Numbered from the stretch's first letter, positions 2,492 through 41,986 are shown. The stretch: DNA of 64,000 bases from Limisphaerales bacterium (GCA_965227305.1 OZ245740.1:9302512-9366511), one strand, 5' to 3'. A program made the numbers and translations. The notes: generated from the sequence alone by a model not told the origin.

Positions 2492-2494
2492 TTG

Positions 2495-2596
2495 GGCGAG
2501 CGTACTCGCGAGCCGTTCCTGCCCAGAGGGTTCTTGTGGGCCTAGGGTGTTTTGCGGACGCTTCTCTTGCCCAACGGCTCGCGGGTACGCTCGTCC
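2495..2596. repeat. inverted doublet of a REP-like element (REPIN-like)
   Basis: GGCGAGCGTACTCGCGAGCCGTT (2495-2517) and its near reverse complement CTTGCCCAACGGCTCGCGGGTACGCTCGTCC (2566-2596) flank a ~48-bp spacer. The same ~30-bp motif recurs at 9567-9596 and 29741-29767, and as split halves around the hairpin elements at 13.3 and 29.4 kb. Confidence 0.75.
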
Positions 2597-4622: not shown

Positions 4623-7217
4623 TTAGAAGGCACCTTCCGGCGCGGGGGCGTATTTGGATTCGAACAAATGCTTGTAGGGTTGCCCTATTTGTTCGAAGGA
4701 TCCGCTCATGGATTCCGGTTTGCCATTGCTATCCAGAGACTGAATCTCACATCTCACGCCGCCTGCGCCTTGGTGGACGGCAATTCCTATTTTAAGAGAC
4801 TGGGTTCCCTCTTCTAGCCAGATTGGATCGTTATATCGTCGTCTCATGAGTCTGGCATTGGATCCCTGACTCCGCATCAGCTGGATGAGAGCGATATGAT
4901 ATCTTTGAGGGGGAATTCGAGTTCGCATGAGAGCATCGATAATCTGAGCCCTGCGGGCACCGAGTTGATCTGTCAATTTATTCCGCCACGCCTCTTTGAG
5001 TGCTCTGGCTTCGTTTGGGAAGGCCTTTAGCTCGTATTGGTAGGTCGGGTGATCAAGCGGGTGGAGATTCTTCTTCTCCAACGCATGGAATCGGCTCTCG
5101 AATTCATGGTAGGTTCGGGTTACGAAGTTGATTTGCTTTTCCGTTAGCCCAAGCAAGGCGACGGTGCCGTTGGAGAGTTGGCCCGCCAGGTTCAACCCGG
5201 GAATGCCCAGTGTCGGAATCATGGATTTCGGTATATCACGATAGGGCTGGCCTTCAACGAAGTGAACGAGCTGCGACTCCTGTAGTTCCGAATAGTCTTC
5301 AAGGTGTTCCTCTTGATAGATCTGGATTGGTTCGTCTCCATCATCAAGGCTTTGTCTAACTCTTGCCCGCCATTGGGCCAAGATGGGTTTCATGCTGTCC
5401 GGAGCGTGTTGGTCCCACTCTGGCGGAAAGGGGCGGCCGCTACGACTCTGGCTGAAGTCGGCATCTTTTGCTTGGTGAAGCCCGATCTCCAGTTGGGTTC
5501 CGAGATCCTCCAAGCGGAAGGTGTAGTGATGGGAAAAGTGTTCTGGATTCTCAAGGTTGGAGGCGATCCATAACGCATTGGCTCGTTCCGTGCCCAAGAC
5601 GGATTCCAGTGTGGCTTTTAGACGGGCTCGGATCGCGCTGATTTTTTGGGGTTTGGGCGGAATCAACCGGAAGGTATGTGCTTCGAGGATTCTCTGAACA
5701 AGTCCGCCGGTTTGGAGGTTTGGGTGATAGTTTTCCGACTCGGGTTGCATCTGGGAGAACTTGAGTTGAAGCATTTCGTGGAAATACGCGGACAGGGCTT
5801 CGTTTATCTTCAAGGCGGTTTGGCGCGTGATTCCATTCGCTTTGGCGAACGGTACTGTGACTGCAACGCCATTGGTTCTTCCCGGTGTTGGGGTCGTGGA
5901 CGGGAGGCTCGACTGGTTCAGTAGGGCTCGGGGAACTCGTTGGAAATCGGAATCTTCGACCCACGGAAAGTAACGCACTTCGCCCTCGATTTCTCGCTCA
6001 AGGACTTGCAGTTCTAGGTTCTCCGGGTAAGGCGTGAAGTTTCTTGGGGTTGATGCTTCCACGCTTGGGCTTTCATTGAACCCGTCGGTATTCCCAACAT
6101 TGGCTTGCGGATCGCCCAGCCCATTGGAGAGGAAGGTGGTCAAGCAGAGACAGGCTGCCGTAAAAAGTCGACTACCGTTTCGCGACAATGGTGCGAGCGT
6201 GATGGAGTGGTCTGAGCGGCGATCCAGTAGAAACTCGATCCGTTGCACGAGTTGATGCTTTCGAAACCCGATGGAAAGCCCGCTGACTCCGGCGGTATGG
6301 GAGGAAAAGGACTGTGAGATCTTTGCCAGCGTTTTTGAAAATTCGAGTCCGCTCCATTCCTGAAGGACGTGATTGTCGCAGAGTTCTTCGCGCGCATGTT
6401 CGAGCTCTCGGTTCATCCAGTACACCAGAGGGTTCGGCCAATAGAACATCTGCGCCAGACGTTGGAGGAGGAGCACCCACGCGTCGCCGCGTTGAATGTG
6501 TGCGCATTCATGTGTTAGGACTTGTTCGAGTTCTGCTTCGGACAGGGTGCGTTCAATCGTGTCCGGTAGGATGATTATCGGGTGCCGCCATCCGAGCACC
6601 ATGGGAATACTCGTGCCCTCGGAAACGCGAACCGTCGGAATGGCGTCGAGACGAACCTGGGCTGCAACCCGTGCTAAACAGGCTTGTCCGGTCTTGCTCT
6701 TGAAGGCCGACGAATTGGCCTCGATTTGGCGTAGTCGACGCCACCCTAGAGTCCATCGAAGGGCCCAAAATATCAGCCCGGCAATCCAGAGGCAGAGAAC
6801 CAGAAAAGGCCACGGCGACGGAGCAGTGCGGTTTGAGGCGAACGACTCGGAACCGGCAGGTGCCTGCCTGATCCCAGGCTGTAGGAGGGGCACCATTGTT
6901 GGTGAATCGGCTTGGCCCCAGTCAAGGGCATTGCCGGCGAAGTCTTGTTGGTGGCTCAAGTGGTCCGACGCGGCTTGTGACATCACGGGGTGAGCGTTTC
7001 GCATCCAATCCGGCGACCACCGCCAGTTTAACTCCTTGGAAAGCAGCACGGTCGCTGGTAGGAGGATGACAGCCCACAAGACTCCCAACCAAACCTGATG
7101 ACGCCAGCGCGGGCTGTGTTTGCCGAGCAGCCATGCGATAAACGCGCCTAGCAGAATCAGCCCCGACGAGGTGATGATGATTTGGATCAGCCCACTGAAG
7201 ACGGTATTAGTGTTCAT
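4623..7217 (-). CDS. BlaR1/MecR1-type (M56) membrane signal-transducer protease homolog with a long unknown C-terminal region
   Basis: N-terminal TM segments and HECAHIQRGD (the HExxH of the M56 family). Its ATG overlaps the stop of the upstream BlaI-like gene (ATGA at 7214-7217). I recognise no motif in the ~560-aa C-terminal part. Confidence 0.75.
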   Translation of the reverse strand: MNTNTVFSGLIQIIITSSGLILLGAFIAWLLGKHSPRWRHQVWLGVLWAVILLPATVLLSKELNWRWSPDWMRNAHPVMSQAASDHLSHQQDFAGNALDWGQADSPTMVPLLQPGIRQAPAGSESFASNRTAPSPWPFLVLCLWIAGLIFWALRWTLGWRRLRQIEANSSAFKSKTGQACLARVAAQVRLDAIPTVRVSEGTSIPMVLGWRHPIIILPDTIERTLSEAELEQVLTHECAHIQRGDAWVLLLQRLAQMFYWPNPLVYWMNRELEHAREELCDNHVLQEWSGLEFSKTLAKISQSFSSHTAGVSGLSIGFRKHQLVQRIEFLLDRRSDHSITLAPLSRNGSRLFTAACLCLTTFLSNGLGDPQANVGNTDGFNESPSVEASTPRNFTPYPENLELQVLEREIEGEVRYFPWVEDSDFQRVPRALLNQSSLPSTTPTPGRTNGVAVTVPFAKANGITRQTALKINEALSAYFHEMLQLKFSQMQPESENYHPNLQTGGLVQRILEAHTFRLIPPKPQKISAIRARLKATLESVLGTERANALWIASNLENPEHFSHHYTFRLEDLGTQLEIGLHQAKDADFSQSRSGRPFPPEWDQHAPDSMKPILAQWRARVRQSLDDGDEPIQIYQEEHLEDYSELQESQLVHFVEGQPYRDIPKSMIPTLGIPGLNLAGQLSNGTVALLGLTEKQINFVTRTYHEFESRFHALEKKNLHPLDHPTYQYELKAFPNEARALKEAWRNKLTDQLGARRAQIIDALMRTRIPPQRYHIALIQLMRSQGSNARLMRRRYNDPIWLEEGTQSLKIGIAVHQGAGGVRCEIQSLDSNGKPESMSGSFEQIGQPYKHLFESKYAPAPEGAF

Positions 7218-7627: not shown

Positions 7628-7658
7628 GGGTTCATTCTGAAGGCTTGATTTCGAGCTG

Positions 7659-7696
7659 CCTACAACTGTAGGTGGGAACATGCCTACAGTTGTAGG
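7659..7696. promoter_or_regulatory. two BlaI/CopY-type operator boxes (TACAnnTGTA)
   Basis: CCTACAACTGTAGG (7659-7672) and CCTACAGTTGTAGG (7683-7696) are both perfect 14-bp palindromes, 24 bp centre to centre. They lie 32-70 bp upstream of the repressor ATG at 7627. Confidence 0.7.
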
Positions 7697-7949
7697 CAGA
7701 GTCAATACAAGTGTTCGAAATTATTTGGTAGGCGCTAGTGGTGCCGAAGTTTTTGTGGGGTACCCGAGAGATCCGAATTTCATACGATCGGCCAGGACAG
7801 AGATTGTGCCGTCGCCGCCATGGAAACGTTTCTTGAATATCTCGATCCCCAGGCTTGTCTTGAGGCGGCTTGAGCTCTCGAAGGGGGTTAGTCGGGCACG
7901 AGTTCTGTTTTCTCCCGCTTCCGTAGTGAACTCGCAATGGTTCCGGATT

Positions 7950-9566: not shown

Positions 9567-9596
9567 CTTGCCCAACGGCTCGCGGGTACGCTCGCC
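9567..9596. repeat. single REP-like element
   Basis: CTTGCCCAACGGCTCGCGGGTACGCTCGCC lies in the 106-bp gap between two minus-strand genes and is uninterrupted by the hairpin element. Confidence 0.7.
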
Positions 9597-9620
9597 CTAC
9601 CGGGGGGCTTCGTTGAGGCG

Positions 9621-13201: not shown

Positions 13202-13339
13202 AGTGGCGAGTTGTTAATCGCGAGAAAGAAATTACGAATAATTATTCGTAATATACAGAGGCAAATTGGAATGTCAAATCCAAATGCGATCGGGCATGGC
13301 TGAGCCATTCTCGATTTTTTTCCGGATGGTGGGGCGAGC

Positions 13340-13518
13340 GTACCAGACTGTGTAATAAGTCCTTTTCCACCTGCAGGTACGAGTGTGAAAGCGACAGCTC
13401 CGCTCTCGCACTCCAAAAAACGCTCGATATGCGGACGAAATTTGGAGTGCGAGAGCGGAGCTGTCGCTTTGGCCACCGCGATGGAATTGCCAACGTGATT
13501 TTATATACGGTCTGGTAC
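13340..13518. mobile_element. ~180-bp MITE-like hairpin element, copy 1, sitting inside a split REP
   Basis: Termini GTACCAGAC (13340-13348) / GTCTGGTAC (13510-13518). The core is a 30-bp perfect inverted repeat (13388-13417 / 13441-13470) with a 23-nt loop. It is flanked by REP halves GGCGAGC (13333-13339) and CCGCGAGCCG (13519-13528). A second copy in inverted orientation lies at 29426-29603. Confidence 0.7.
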
Positions 13519-13901
13519 CCGCGAGCCGTCGTCACAAGGGCAGCCGCTATCCCGGAAAAAATCCCCGCGCACAGCGGCAGGACCCCCGCTATCCGGAGGG
13601 CAGCCGGGGCTTCTTTAGCCGTTCACGCTCGCTCGACCTTTTCTGGCGCATCCCCGCTAGAGAAGAATTCGTTGGAAACCCGGTCGAGATGAGGCAGAGT
13701 AGGTGTGATGGAGTGGGACGGCTTGGAGGCTGCTGTTGCCTGCCAGAGCCGAGCGTGAAATGAACTGGGCGTGTGAAAAGTGCGGCGGGCCAAGTTTGGG
13801 ACGGCCTGACTGGGCCTGCATTGGCTCAGGCTGGTCTTGCTAGTGTCCTGAGGTCGCGCGTTTTTCTTCAACGGAAAAGGAAGTATCAAATACAGATCGC
13901 T

Positions 13902-24714: not shown

Positions 24715-25130
24715 CCTGGGAACAGGGAGCCGCGGATGGCGCCCCATACGCGATCTGTGACGGTACGGTTCTCGACCTTCCCTGGAAGGTAGGCCGAGCA
24801 CGGTATCGAGAGGGAGCGCGTCAGGAGCATTTGGCTGATCTAAGGAGGAAGTTGTCGTGTTAGTGGCCAGGATGTGGGCCGTTTTCCTTTCCTGGTCTAC
24901 GTATGCCGTCTTGGTTTGAGGCAATGCGGCTTGACATTAGGGAGTCTACGGTGCTTTCTGAGGGTAGCTCGGAGCGTTGGGAGACGCTAGAGTGATCAAG
25001 GATTAAGCACTAGGACACTCCCCTTATGAAACTGCTGAACCAGAATGGAGCTGGCAATCGTACTGACTGCGGTGTCGATTCCTCCCTTTTCTTGGCGTCT
25101 GCCACGGGGCGCCTTCTTGTTGCAAGGGCA

Positions 25131-25769
25131 ATGCCTTTTTCTCTCGTTTCCTCCGTGAGCTTGGGATTTGCCAGAGCTCGGCTGCTGGGGCTCGTTGTCG
25201 GGGTTTGTCTGGCCCTAAACATGTACCCCGCTCAGGGGCAAATTACGCTGACTGTTTCTCAAGACGGCAGTGGTATGAATGTGAGTGTCTTGAATGGAGC
25301 TGTCTTCACGGCTACGAGTTCATTCGTAGGCAATAATGTCTTTTTCGGTGTTACCTTAAAGAATCTGCTAATCGGGAACACGGTGGTGCAGACGTCATTC
25401 AACGAGCAGGGATCGTTTGCGCTCAACGGACGCAAGACGAATATTTACAATGGGACGTTGTCACATGGTGGTAGAGACGCGACGGATTTGGTTTTGGGAT
25501 TCGATGCCTTTCCCGAACCCTATTCACAAAATGATCAGATCCCCCTAGGTCCAGGGAGCGTGAAGATTGTCGGTGTGAATTATAATTTCACTGAGTTGGG
25601 CTCGAATGGAACGGCCTATTTGTTCGACGTTAACGGCACGGTACTCACCGATTCTTCCGTGACTTGGACCCTCGTGCCTGAGCCCGAAACCTACGCTGCG
25701 ATAACCGGGCTCGTCTGTGTCGGATTGGTGGTCTTCCGTCGTTCCTCGCGCCCGCGAGTTACGGTCTGA
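25131..25769 (+). CDS. PEP-CTERM sorting-domain protein
   Basis: The ATG at 25131 gives a signal peptide. The C-terminus VPEPETYAAITGLVCVGLVVFRRSSRPR has PEP motif + TM + Arg cluster. The mature part is ~65% identical to the next gene's product (by-eye estimate). Confidence 0.8.
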   Translation: MPFSLVSSVSLGFARARLLGLVVGVCLALNMYPAQGQITLTVSQDGSGMNVSVLNGAVFTATSSFVGNNVFFGVTLKNLLIGNTVVQTSFNEQGSFALNGRKTNIYNGTLSHGGRDATDLVLGFDAFPEPYSQNDQIPLGPGSVKIVGVNYNFTELGSNGTAYLFDVNGTVLTDSSVTWTLVPEPETYAAITGLVCVGLVVFRRSSRPRVTV

Positions 25770-25790
25770 TCTCCATGTTCATGGTGGGGG
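25644..25790 (+). repeat. 147-bp near-identical duplicated block (copy 1) covering the PEP-CTERM tail, stop codon and 21 nt beyond
   Basis: Differs from 26464-26610 at only 3 positions, all synonymous. The rest of the two genes is much more diverged. Confidence 0.85.
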
Positions 25791-25977: not shown

Positions 25978-26589
25978 GTGAAATTGTGCTCCATCGAATC
26001 TCGGCTTCTGGCAATGATTGCGGGGGGCTGTCTGTTACTGAACATAGGTAGCATTCACGGGCAAATCACCCTGACTGTTTCTCAAGACGCTAGCGGTTTG
26101 AACGTGAATATACTGAACGGTGCCGTTTTTACTGCGACTTCTTCATCTGCGGGCAACAACAATTTTTTTGGCGTCGTATTCAATAATCTACTGGTGGGCA
26201 ATACAGTGGCTCAGGTTTCCTTTGAGCAAGGAAACTTTTCGATCAATGAATTGACGACGAACATTTTTAATGGAACCAGCCAGTCGCCACCCAGGGATCT
26301 AACGGATCTGTTTTTAGGATTTGATGTCCCTTTCGTGCCATACTCGGTGAATGACCAGATCCCTCTAAGTACGGGGAGTGTCCAGATTACCGGTGTAAAT
26401 TATAATTTCACCGAGTTGAGTTCCAGTGGGACTGCATTCTTGATCGACGGCAGTAGTAATGTGCTCACCGATTCTTCCGTGACTTGGACTCTGGTACCTG
26501 AGCCCGAAACCTACGCTGCGATAACCGGGCTCGTCTGTGTCGGATTGGTGGTCTTCCGTCGTTCCTCGCGCCCGCGAGTTACGGTCTGA
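25978..26589 (+). CDS. PEP-CTERM sorting-domain protein (tandem paralog)
   Basis: GTG start at 25978 (an alternative ATG lies a few codons in). Signal peptide LLAMIAGGCLLLNIGSIHG and a PEP-CTERM tail identical to that of the preceding gene. Confidence 0.8.
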   Translation: MKLCSIESRLLAMIAGGCLLLNIGSIHGQITLTVSQDASGLNVNILNGAVFTATSSSAGNNNFFGVVFNNLLVGNTVAQVSFEQGNFSINELTTNIFNGTSQSPPRDLTDLFLGFDVPFVPYSVNDQIPLSTGSVQITGVNYNFTELSSSGTAFLIDGSSNVLTDSSVTWTLVPEPETYAAITGLVCVGLVVFRRSSRPRVTV

Positions 26590-26610
26590 TCTCCATGTTC
26601 ATGGTGGGGG
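26464..26610 (+). repeat. 147-bp near-identical duplicated block (copy 2)
   Basis: See 25644-25790; the offset is exactly 820 bp. Confidence 0.85.
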
Positions 26611-29297: not shown

Positions 29298-29425
29298 GTT
29301 GGCAGCAATCCTCCGATGATTACCGGATCTTGGTATTGGTAGATTTGGGAGGACACGGCCCAGAATGTTGATTCGGTCGCCCTGGTGATTGATAATTGGT
29401 GCGTCGGTTCCGGATGGTGGCGAGC

Positions 29426-29603
29426 GTACCAGACCTTGTAAATAATCCCGTTGGCAATTCCATCGCGGTGAAAGCGACAGCTTCGCTCTCGCACTCCAAA
29501 AAGCGCTCGATTTGCGGACGAAATTTGGAGTGCGAGAGCGAAGCTGTCGCTTTCACACTTTCTTACATGCAGGTGGAAAAAGACTTTTTACACGGTCTGG
29601 TCC
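29426..29603. mobile_element. ~180-bp MITE-like hairpin element, copy 2 (inverted relative to copy 1)
   Basis: Termini GTACCAGAC (29426-29434) / GTCTGGTCC (29595-29603). The core arms are 29471-29500 / 29524-29553 with a 23-nt loop. Flanking REP halves are GGCGAGC (29419-29425) and the degenerate CCGTGAGTCGG (29604-29614). Confidence 0.7.
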
Positions 29604-29740
29604 CCGTGAGTCGGTGGCACGGTGGTGAACGGCTGACGAGAGCCGTCCGTTGCGCACCGACCACATTCGCCAATCACTTGGATAGACGGGGAGCGCCATG
29701 ATGCGCCGTGATCCGTTTCGGGTTGACGAATACACTCGTG

Positions 29741-29767
29741 CCGACGGCTCGCGGGTACGCTCGCCCC
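29741..29767. repeat. single REP-like element
   Basis: CCGACGGCTCGCGGGTACGCTCGCCCC lies ~45 bp past the lpdA stop. Confidence 0.65.
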
Positions 29768-37339: not shown

Positions 37340-37360
37340 GATGGTTTGCCTTGGAGTTGA

Positions 37361-37404
37361 ACTTAAATAAGTTTTGACTTATGTAAGTTTTAACTTATTT
37401 AAGT
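37361..37404. promoter_or_regulatory. array of three 12-bp palindromic operator-like boxes (ACTTA-nn-TAAGT)
   Basis: ACTTAAATAAGT (37361-37372), ACTTATGTAAGT (37377-37388) and ACTTATTTAAGT (37393-37404) sit at a 16-bp period. They fill 44 of the 101 bp between the divergent ferredoxin and HTH-regulator start codons. Confidence 0.65.
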
Positions 37405-37440
37405 TGCAAAGCAAGAGCGATTCGCAAAGTTTTTCTATCC

Positions 37441-40570: not shown

Positions 40571-41986
40571 TCAATTGTTGGCTGGGGCGGCTTGAGGGAG
40601 GGATTCTTCGCGGGGTAGGGCGCGGACCCCAGCCGAGGTATCTTCAACCCAGGGTGTGTAATCAATCGAGAGGGCGGTTCGCTGAGTGTTTCCTCTCGTG
40701 TCTGCCTTGTCTGCGGCGGGGATTGCCAGTGAGACAATGTTTCGGTTTTCAAGCAGGTGGGCGTAGAGATTCCGGAGGTGAGGGGCCACTTTGAGTTCAT
40801 TGGGGCAGAGCGCGGAATGCTTGTCCTCTCCCCGGGCTGAGTAGCCGTAAACCACCAGGTCGTTTTTGAACATTCGGCCGAAGGATTCGAAAATGCCTCC
40901 ATTGAGGTCGGTGTAGTAATCCTCCTTAAAGAGCTCGGTGAGACTTTCGCTGCTCATGACGATGCCAACCATCTGATTCGTGGCCTTAAACAGGTAGTCG
41001 GCCAGGCGTAAGTGACGATAGTAATTCGTGATCAGAACGGGGTGACCGAGTTTTCTGAGTTGCTCGGCGCGGGCAAGGAAGTCTTGAGAGTCTCGCTTGG
41101 GACCGGAAGGAAGATTCTTCAGGTTCATTTCCAGCAGCACGACGGGCTCTTGACCTTTATTGCGGGGTTCGTGTTGGAATTGATTCGTGGCGGCATCCAA
41201 GCGGTCCAGTTGGAGTTTCGAAAAGGTTTGGAATGTCCCGCGCTTTACGAGAACGGGTTTCTTGTAGAGCATCTCGGTGGGCTGCACGACGTCTCCCGAA
41301 GCGGTGAACATGGCAGAGCGAGTGAGGCCAAACTCCACCAACTTCAAAGCAATGAGTCGCGAGTCGAGCTCTGGGAACGCCGGGCCGGACATGCGAATCA
41401 TGTCTATTTCCACTCGATCCAAGGTAAGCTCATCCATCAGTGACTGGAGGAATTCGTCCGGTCGGCTTGCGAGCTTTGTGGCCCCGAAAATGAGATTGAT
41501 ACCCAGGACGCCGACCGCGTCTTGTTGGCGGTTCACGTCATTGTCTTTGAGTCGGACGTGTATGATCACGTCCGAGGGATCCGCCGCCGGTTCATGTTGG
41601 AATCGAATGCCCATCCAACCGTGCCCGTCTGCATCCCGCTTGAAACTGCGCGTGGCTACGGTGTTGGCGTAGGCGAAGAATCGGCTATCGATGTCTCTTT
41701 GGGTTTGCAGGCGCTGGATTAGGAGTTCGAATTCTCGATCCAGCATGGTGGTGAGTCGTTGCTGGCTGACGTAGCGGGGCGTTGGACCGTAGATGGCGTC
41801 GCTGACATCCATGTCATAGGCTGACATGGTTTTGGCGATCGTACCCGCCGCTCCGCCGACGCGGAAGAACCACCGGGCCGCTTCTTGCCCTGCGCCAATC
41901 TCGGCCAGTGTGCCGTAAACCGTGTTGTCGAGATTCAGTTGAAAGGCTTTTTGGGACGTATCGATTCGAGGTGGATGGAGCGTCAT
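40571..41986 (-). CDS. conserved hypothetical cytoplasmic protein
   Basis: 471-aa ORF, 66 bp downstream of and co-oriented with the TolC-like gene. It has no signal peptide or TM. The block GTLAEIGAGQEAARWFFRVGGAAGTIAKTMSAYDM looks conserved, but I cannot name the family. Confidence 0.6.
   Translation of the reverse strand: MTLHPPRIDTSQKAFQLNLDNTVYGTLAEIGAGQEAARWFFRVGGAAGTIAKTMSAYDMDVSDAIYGPTPRYVSQQRLTTMLDREFELLIQRLQTQRDIDSRFFAYANTVATRSFKRDADGHGWMGIRFQHEPAADPSDVIIHVRLKDNDVNRQQDAVGVLGINLIFGATKLASRPDEFLQSLMDELTLDRVEIDMIRMSGPAFPELDSRLIALKLVEFGLTRSAMFTASGDVVQPTEMLYKKPVLVKRGTFQTFSKLQLDRLDAATNQFQHEPRNKGQEPVVLLEMNLKNLPSGPKRDSQDFLARAEQLRKLGHPVLITNYYRHLRLADYLFKATNQMVGIVMSSESLTELFKEDYYTDLNGGIFESFGRMFKNDLVVYGYSARGEDKHSALCPNELKVAPHLRNLYAHLLENRNIVSLAIPAADKADTRGNTQRTALSIDYTPWVEDTSAGVRALPREESLPQAAPANN

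Follow-up and report, generated by a model that had tools for sequence, protein, structure and literature searches.

The 64,000-nt stretch of DNA analysed here (the window), which is ordinary chromosomal DNA of a Verrucomicrobiota whose AceE has its best named matches in Verrucomicrobiales, contains two copies of a nearly perfect hairpin that differ by a paired base change in their arms, and the question raised by this locus is what such a hairpin represents. An earlier note on the sequence had argued from the paired change that the stem itself is under selection, either as an RNA or as a DNA structure. The explanation that we find fairly probable is instead that the hairpin is a REP-type head-to-head homodimer, forming the core of a mobile and selfish 172–173-bp element that has been inserted in the centre of another short repeat, herein called R1.

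With regard to the hairpins themselves, the earlier description could be confirmed. The arms of copy 1 were 30 nt long and 100% complementary, and the perfect arms of copy 2 were found to be longer than claimed, at 33 nt. The C/T change in one arm was matched by a G/A change in the other, with perfect pairing in both copies, and the 23-nt loops were indeed nearly identical, with 21/23 matches in direct orientation but only 11/23 as reverse complement. In total, the two cores differed at 4/86 positions (95% identity), accounted for by the paired arm change (2) and the loop (2). A search with the arm 30-mer, allowing up to three mismatches, gave four sites in the window, being both arms of both copies, against 0.00 in 100 shuffles, and the 201-nt regions folded as single-stranded DNA at -59.6 and -62.1 kcal/mol (z = -9.0 and -9.4 versus shuffled sequence). 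These properties of the hairpins are far beyond chance. The features of the two cores were as follows.

13388-13417, minus strand: copy 1 left arm, holding the REP-like unit GGAGTGCGAGAGCGGAGCTGTCGCTTT on the minus strand at 13388-13414 (covariance model, 52.6 bits)
13418-13440, no strand: copy 1 loop or spacer, 23 nt, AAACGCTCGATATGCGGACGAAA
13441-13470, plus strand: copy 1 right arm, holding the unit on the plus strand at 13444-13470 (covariance model, 48.4 bits)
29468-29500, minus strand: copy 2 left arm, 33 nt perfect, with the unit on the minus strand at 29471-29497 (52.8 bits)
29501-29523, no strand: copy 2 loop or spacer, 23 nt
29524-29556, plus strand: copy 2 right arm, 33 nt perfect, with the unit on the plus strand at 29527-29553 (53.6 bits)

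The unit found in each arm was 27 nt long (GGAGTGC-GAGAGC-GRA-GCTGTC-GCTTT) and had an anatomy of its own, with a foot (GGAGTGC), an 8-bp stem of which a 6-bp part was variable, a 3-nt loop and a tail (GCTTT). Using a 19-nt word from the arm as query against 185,579 representative genomes, we obtained 25 loci, of which 11 were found in one marine Verrucomicrobiota MAG, CAYFGX01, that is related to the window organism (AceE 83% identical); the remaining loci were from Acidobacteriota, Thermoguttaceae, Isosphaeraceae, Limisphaerales and Eisenbacteria. The few word matches located inside coding sequence were read as chance. A covariance model recovered only four units in the window (two doublets), i.e. 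the four arms already described, and gave further units and one extra doublet in the other loci, and a metagenome scan anchored on both feet yielded 1 true member (L027) among 11 matches. In all units the foot was GGAGT(GC). Partner units, which the search word had left free, had kept the foot GGAGTGC and the tail GCTTT and had covarying stems (GGAAGC/GCTTCC, TGAAAC/GTTTCA, TGAAGC/GCTTCA and GGGAGC/GCTCCC), and a scan of viral contigs with free stem triplets gave five units, with the triplets complementary in 5/5. Over 20 distinct units the 8-bp stem was 90.6% paired, versus 29–44% when the partners were slid, and double-sided changes were seen in 4/8 pairs, with 0/500 shuffles reaching the observed covariation score. 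The stem of the window unit, GAGAGC/GCTGTC, holds an internal G-G mismatch.

Units occurred either singly, head-to-head (13 doublets, Verrucomicrobiota) or tail-to-tail (6 doublets, other phyla), with head-to-head pairs seen in the Verrucomicrobiota MAG CAYFGX01 and tail-to-tail or single units in Acidobacteriota, Thermoguttaceae and Isosphaeraceae. In most pairs the two units had unlike stems. In other phyla, single units often began 3-13 nt 3' of a stop codon, reading in the sense direction (L018, L020, L023, L006, L003 and L025). On viral contigs, the units at 5289-5323 and 6226-6260 (+) of L053 and at 414-441 of L050 were found between structural genes of the minus strand, preceding the next start codon by 11-35 nt, such that the mRNA reads AAAGC..GCACUCCA; this orientation is opposite to the after-stop-codon pattern of Acidobacteriota and Thermoguttaceae.

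REPs are built of a foot, a stem-loop and a tail (PMC3733652, Di Nocera 2013), and both REPs and REPINs form head-to-head and tail-to-tail homo- or heterodimers that can adopt either a long-hairpin or a clover fold (PMC3116915, PMC3733652). The present unit falls within the 20-40 nt of a REP and has an unpaired 5' foot and a conserved stem-loop, and its inverted doublets could be folded as either one long or two small hairpins. As compared with REPINs and BIMEs (PMC3116915, PMC3733652), the similarities thus comprised the unpaired foot, the 6-9-bp stem, the small loop and the short tail, the inverted homo- and heterodimers, whose spacer is conserved when they are head-to-head, the extragenic location and the alternative ‘long hairpin’ or ‘clover’ folds. 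The differences were the foot GGAGTGC, the Verrucomicrobiota host and the surroundings of the doublet, since REPINs have not been described with terminal inverted repeats (TIRs) and a target duplication of their own, whereas the window doublet sits inside such an element.

When the literature was searched by unit sequence, nothing relevant was found in main texts or in the Di Nocera supplements, but a match was obtained in the table of ‘REP manually identified in REPtrons’ given by Quentin 2018 (PMC6006769, Table S1). In that table, GGAGTGCGGCAGC-CAT-GCTGCCG flanks the subclass 2.2 tnpA_REP gene ABY36092.1 of the record CaurA01, and GGCGTGCGGCAGC-CAT-GCTGCCG is also given beside this gene. These REPs share with the window unit the foot, the GC...AGC/GCT...GC frame of the stem and the 3-nt loop, and in foot and stem they were identical to the units of the viral contigs L049, L051 and L052; the window units are unlike them in having the stem GAGAGC/GCTGTC with its G-G mismatch and in coming from another phylum, and the CaurA01 REPs adjoin a transposase gene whereas the window copies do not. 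The code CaurA01 we take to denote Chloroflexus aurantiacus. The window foot did not carry the guide motif GT[AG]G, or that of the CGTC superfamily; it fits the GGAGTG/GGCGTG of one subclass 2.2 REPtron and resembles the GTGC/GGTGC of others (PMC6006769, Table S1). Class 3 TnpA_Y1 structures having a ‘CnGA foot’, as found in Planctomycetes and Acidobacteria, were also considered and were rejected because of a foot mismatch. Based on the organisation, which is like that of REPs and REPINs, together with the match in foot and stem to the CaurA01 REPs, we file the hairpin as a REPIN-like, head-to-head homodimer of a REP-type unit, with the association to a RAYT being taken from the PMC6006769 table only.

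It had been suggested earlier that the hairpin could be a recognition structure for a transposase of the RAYT type. As to the family this appears right, considering the REP-type inverted doublet and the match of its unit to REPs located beside a tnpA_REP gene, but no such enzyme was encountered, neither in the window nor in about 450 kb of loci, where tblastn with RayT and IS608 TnpA queries gave only matches with E>0.4 and no RAYT- or IS200-like genes. A weak tblastn match in L021 was rejected as a transposase because it was antisense to an esterase-like gene. Pfam scans of 39 ORFs of the 64-kb window gave no transposase of any kind. By analogy with other REPs, the unit may be the recognition hairpin of a RAYT-type (Y1/HUH) enzyme.

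Each hairpin doublet is the core of a larger, non-coding insertion of 172–173 bp that is bounded by TIRs and interrupts an R1 repeat, with the following features.

13343-13515, no strand: element copy 1, in the order TIR, segment A, hairpin doublet, segment B, TIR (from TIR search, sequence and alignment)
13343-13361, plus strand: copy 1 left TIR, CCAGACTGTGTAATAAGTC
13497-13515, minus strand: copy 1 right TIR, CCAGACCGTATATAAAATC on the minus strand
13340-13343, no strand: duplicated target to the left of copy 1, GTAC, or TA at 13341-13342 if the TIR begins CCAGAC
13515-13518, no strand: duplicated target to the right of copy 1, with TA at 13516-13517
29429-29600, no strand: element copy 2, 172 bp, in an orientation relative to R1 that is opposite to that of copy 1
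29429-29447, plus strand: copy 2 left TIR, CCAGACCTTGTAAATAATC
29582-29600, minus strand: copy 2 right TIR, CCAGACCGTGTAAAAAGTC on the minus strand
13319-13342, plus strand: R1 left half interrupted by copy 1, TTTCCGGATGGTGGGGCGAGCGTA, with the right half at 13516-13529
29405-29428, plus strand: R1 left half interrupted by copy 2, with a diverged right half at 29601-29614
29744-29766, minus strand: intact R1 (paralogous ‘empty site’), GGGCGAGCGTACCCGCGAGCCGT
2494-2516 (plus), 2574-2596 (minus) and 9575-9597 (minus): other intact R1 copies in the window, uninterrupted

A 19-nt TIR consensus, CCAGACYGTGTAAWAARTC, was found at both ends of both copies. It had five matches in the window versus 0.05 expected, of which four mark the element ends of copies 1 and 2; the fifth (40649-40667, three mismatches) was judged unrelated. 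Segments A and B, located between the hairpin and the TIRs on either side, were unique sequences of about 26 nt. The short repeat R1 was interrupted by both elements at the same place, between GGGCGAGCGTAC and CCGCGAGCCGT, and the four intact R1 copies carried a single GTAC each. Removal of the element together with one TA from copy 1 restored an exact intact R1, wider flanks included, and copy 1 is therefore bordered by a duplicated TA, or by a duplicated GTAC depending on where the TIR is taken to start; at copy 2, one border read GTAC and the other GTCC. The target-site duplication and empty site typical of a MITE were hence present, with empty sites that are paralogous and not orthologous and with a pattern that cannot be told apart from that expected if an element ending in GTAC inserts 3' of a GTAC without any duplication. 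No orthologous empty site was found among the relatives with AceE identities of 81-87%, in which the gene order after lpdA differs, and the loci of these relatives held neither units nor TIRs. Because even the closest of them (AceE 87%) has a different synteny, the case for mobility rests on the paralogous R1 copies.

The R1 consensus, [AT]TCCGGATGGTGGGGCGAGCGTAC[CT]CGCGAGCCGT[CT]G, was common to the window and the related MAG, with further sites in L001 (~2668), L017 (~4450), L002, L013 (~2505), L027 and L046. R1 mostly lay 14-120 nt 3' of a stop codon, read in the sense direction, and it was the preferred insertion site of the 173-bp element. R1 itself might be a REP-like sequence, act as a terminator or serve as a binding site for a protein; a tRNA-like reading of it was rejected after a tRNA scan, and tRNA and tandem-repeat scans found nothing.

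Diverged elements having the same layout and R1-like flanks were present in the MAG loci L002, L013 (twice), L017, L021 and L024, and also in L027. In L014, however, a homodimeric doublet was found in an R1-like site without the shell of TIRs and segments A and B, which suggests that the doublet can move or persist apart from its shell. That doublet (~4990-5095) was located directly 3' of an R1-like left half, ATTCCGGATGGTGAGACGAG, and its palindrome was lengthened by GAGCGTG/CACGCTC. No further TIR matches were found in the window or in 39 loci, and none in plasmid and phage collections, nor did the window or the 39 loci contain any autonomous IS with the TIRs of the element (CCAGACYGTGTAAAAA ends).

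These features bring the element close to known MITEs. Correia elements of Neisseria and similar MITEs are about 100-170 bp long, intergenic, bounded by TIRs and flanked by a TA duplication, occur in both orientations and give a long RNA hairpin; no cognate transposase is known for them, nor for the element described here. The present element is like them in size, TIRs, TA duplication, occurrence in both orientations and long hairpin fold, but shares no sequence similarity with them, has R1 as its target and has as its core a REP-type doublet that also exists alone. Insertion sequences that target REPs, such as IS1397, ISKpn1 and IS621-like elements, insert at a fixed position in short repeated palindromic or extragenic sequences, which the present element also does, but it differs from these in being non-coding and in having a target, R1, that is not the unit it carries.

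It could accordingly be asked whether the element is a plain MITE derived from a DDE transposon, for example from a TA-duplicating IS630/Tc1-like element, with the palindrome as incidental cargo having no RAYT-type role. The 19-bp TIRs, the TA or GTAC duplication, the small size without any ORF, the occurrence in both orientations, the precise interruption of R1 and an overall layout like that of Correia-type MITEs would all agree with such an origin. We nonetheless consider it unlikely, as the core unit exists without a shell in many lineages, including the shell-less doublet of L014, as no autonomous IS with these TIRs was seen, as the apparent duplication has the alternative reading given above and as a unit of this type figures among the REPs adjoining a tnpA_REP gene (PMC6006769). 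Within the explanation that we favour, i.e. a REP-type homodimer carried by an R1-inserted element, the outer TIRs and the target duplication would reflect either MITE-like mobilisation through a DDE-type transposase or target-specific insertion next to GTAC.

Turning to the paired change, on which the proposal of a selected 30-bp stem had been built, the changed site was found to be the middle nucleotide of the triloop of each unit (GAA versus GGA). This position varied in 4/15 related arms, against 0/135 at nine other unconstrained positions (Fisher p = 7e-5), these nine being the positions after the triloop site that were likewise left free in the search word, and the corresponding column was among the least conserved of the unit alignment. 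Changes without compensation, which the earlier note had named as the observation that would speak against selection, were seen in other copies: the two arms of L014 differed both at the triloop centre and at a second site, and L021 and L024 each had an uncompensated G/G mismatch in the foot, although this is a small sample. Among the other doublets (n=10), seven had unlike arm types, including the chimera of L027 discussed below, with 17-22/27 Watson–Crick pairs between the arms, and three had both arms of one type, with 25-26/27 such pairs, whereas the internal pairs of the unit were 6-8/8 in every unit, and 7-8/8 in all except the chimeric arm of L027. Across the family it is therefore the small hairpin that is conserved, rather than the 30-bp stem. 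If mutation were uniform and independent, a paired change of this kind would have a chance of about 0.6%, but it comes as much less of a surprise where the site is hypervariable, tolerated and part of a palindrome, and the ‘compensatory’ change makes a poor case for a selected RNA. Selection on the stem is thus not supported by the paired change, whereas the accompanying statement that the hairpin is not merely a decaying repeat was borne out, the pattern not being one of random decay.

A structured small or cis-acting RNA, with the 30-bp stem under purifying selection and the paired change being truly compensatory, would explain why both window stems are perfect in spite of four differences between the copies, why the fold is very stable and why the cores are better conserved than the flanks (95% versus about 88.5% identity), which could indeed reflect purifying selection on the hairpin. 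Rfam gave nothing at gathering score, with the sole match being to a miRNA hairpin model at 42.9 bits (cut-off 110), and thus lent no support to a small RNA, and neither a family match nor covariation of the long stem was found, with the inter-arm pairing outside the window ranging over 17-26/27. As the long stem is not kept in the family (17-22/27 in doublets with unlike arms), as uncompensated changes occur in L014, L021 and L024 even at the site in question, as that site is the hypervariable apex of a small hairpin and as the genomic contexts of the two copies are inconsistent, we regard this as a very improbable explanation. Furthermore, the loop is found in both orientations, so that no single strand-specific RNA is conserved.

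The orientation of the loop also says something about how the arms may have been kept alike. Segments A and B of the two copies matched each other as reverse complements (40/45 and 37/42), whereas the loops matched in direct orientation, which shows that the orientation of the loop is uncoupled from that of the element body. Both loop orientations were represented among the homodimeric elements, one by window copy 1 and L024 and the other by window copy 2 and L021. In L027, moreover, the left arm of a head-to-head doublet (2212-2295) was a chimera, its outer half being of the TGAAGC type and its inner half of the GAGAGC type, which looks like a partial conversion tract from one arm to the other. 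Correction of quasipalindromes by template switching, with flip or flop of the loop, is a process whereby one arm is copied from the other and the loop can become inverted without any selection for structure. This is a mutational mechanism and not an element family, and its operation here is suggested by the loop orientations and the chimeric arm, which fit with arm-to-arm copying, or recombination at the palindrome, keeping the arms identical. Since the triloop site is the most variable, the arms of relatives differ and the loop is inverted relative to the body, the perfect stems most likely come from homogenisation between the arms or from recent copying of a mobile palindrome. The 30-33-bp arms would then be perfect because both are of one unit type and because copying between them keeps them identical, possibly through intrastrand template switching, through gene conversion at the palindrome or through a snap-back intermediate formed during copying, and the same process could invert the loop. 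The ‘compensatory’ pair would accordingly go back to a single change, tolerated at the triloop apex and then transferred by copying from one arm to the other, rather than to two independently selected substitutions in an RNA stem, and compensatory-looking changes are reported to be common in REPINs and BIMEs (PMC3116915, PMC3733652). A flip of the loop would also be mimicked if the doublet had entered, independently and in either orientation, a shell that was already in place, and the doublet of L014 in an R1-like site without a shell is in line with such entry; with only about 13 doublets, the arguments for both flip and homogenisation build on small numbers. An invertible promoter switch was also considered and was rejected, as there was no recombinase gene nearby and the 23-nt spacer is too short for recombinase-mediated inversion.

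With regard to the genomic context, copy 1 was flanked by the divergent genes usp and ald and lay upstream of a promoter-like site of usp, copy 2 was flanked by a macB-like gene and lpdA, which are convergent, and no single regulatory role fits both positions. The usp site (13250-13277, minus strand) was a strong sigma-70-like match, TTGACA-16-TATATT (11/12), and as it lies between the usp start and the element, that promoter was not displaced by the insertion. A role as terminator or insulator, another of the earlier suggestions, finds no support in these positions, one being between divergent and the other between convergent genes. In a terminator scan, a small hairpin with a T-rich tail was flagged on the plus strand of copy 2 and none in copy 1, the T tract being 3-4 nt. 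It is conceivable that the host has co-opted the element as a bidirectional terminator or as a stabiliser of mRNA 3' ends, as reported for some REP/BIME sequences, and the location of copy 2 between convergent genes with its terminator-like hairpin, as well as the frequent start of single units of other phyla 3-13 nt past a stop codon in the sense direction, point that way. This seems rather unlikely, however, as copy 1 lies in a divergent promoter region, downstream of no gene and with no terminator-like site flagged, as the T tract is so short and as the units of viral contigs lie opposite to the direction of transcription just upstream of start codons, and it would in any case be a secondary effect that leaves the origin of the element unexplained.

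Perfect palindromes can also extrude as cruciforms, and binding of IHF, DNA polymerase I and gyrase has been reported for REP/BIME sequences (in the background of PMC6006769), such that the hairpin might be a structural site in DNA, involving a cruciform, nucleoid or gyrase binding or a domain insulator, that is kept for chromosome organisation. Having only two copies in 64 kb, arms that are non-complementary in most family members, an element clearly inserted into another repeat and nothing seen here that was specific to such a role, we find this extremely improbable. The hairpin is probably selfish mobile DNA, and the element as a whole is, or was, presumably mobile and selfish.

A bolder proposal, which we find doubtful, is that the GGAGTGC-footed units constitute an undescribed cross-phylum REP lineage (Verrucomicrobiota, Planctomycetota, Acidobacteriota, CaurA01 and viral contigs), of which the head-to-head doublet was captured in Verrucomicrobiota as the core of an R1-homing element with TIRs and a target duplication, giving a hybrid of a Y1/RAYT-type REPIN and a DDE-type MITE in which the loop flips and flops via a snap-back single-strand intermediate.

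Some other features of the window and its relatives were also observed. Two tandem paralogous ORFs of 247 and 203 aa (25026-25769 and 25978-26589) had no Pfam match and gave repeats (25232-25781 versus 26055-26601) that were 70-83% identical in DNA and spaced 820 nt apart. An AT-rich, near-perfect palindrome with 22-nt arms and a 2-nt gap (37360-37405), located between divergent sulfite/nitrite-reductase-like and ArsR/HTH genes, is a likely operator site, and an imperfect 39-nt inverted repeat (7634-7721, 74% complementary, 10-nt gap) was found upstream of a BlaR1-like M56 peptidase gene. In L045 (4318-6821, MAG CAYFGX010000061.1), lpdA was absent after the PDH E2 gene, with about 2.5 kb containing only tiny ORFs in its place, and in L041 (15479-16645), from another relative, lpdA was followed by a gene with a faint DDE_Tnp_IS1 match; the stretch that follows the PDH operon seems to rearrange easily.

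The kind of feature studied here is ordinary and its packaging is unusual, with a nesting in three layers whereby a unit doublet lies in a TIR element that in turn lies in an R1 repeat. For annotation, loci of this type call for a label of repeat or mobile DNA rather than candidate sRNA, and a ‘compensatory’ pair should not by itself be taken as evidence for a selected RNA structure, because arm-to-arm copying at a tolerated site of a palindrome can produce one. The findings extend REP/REPIN-type elements to Verrucomicrobiota and document a foot variant that so far has been recorded only in a supplementary table. If the flip of the loop is active, the element would offer a simple natural setting in which to study hairpin-templated copying.
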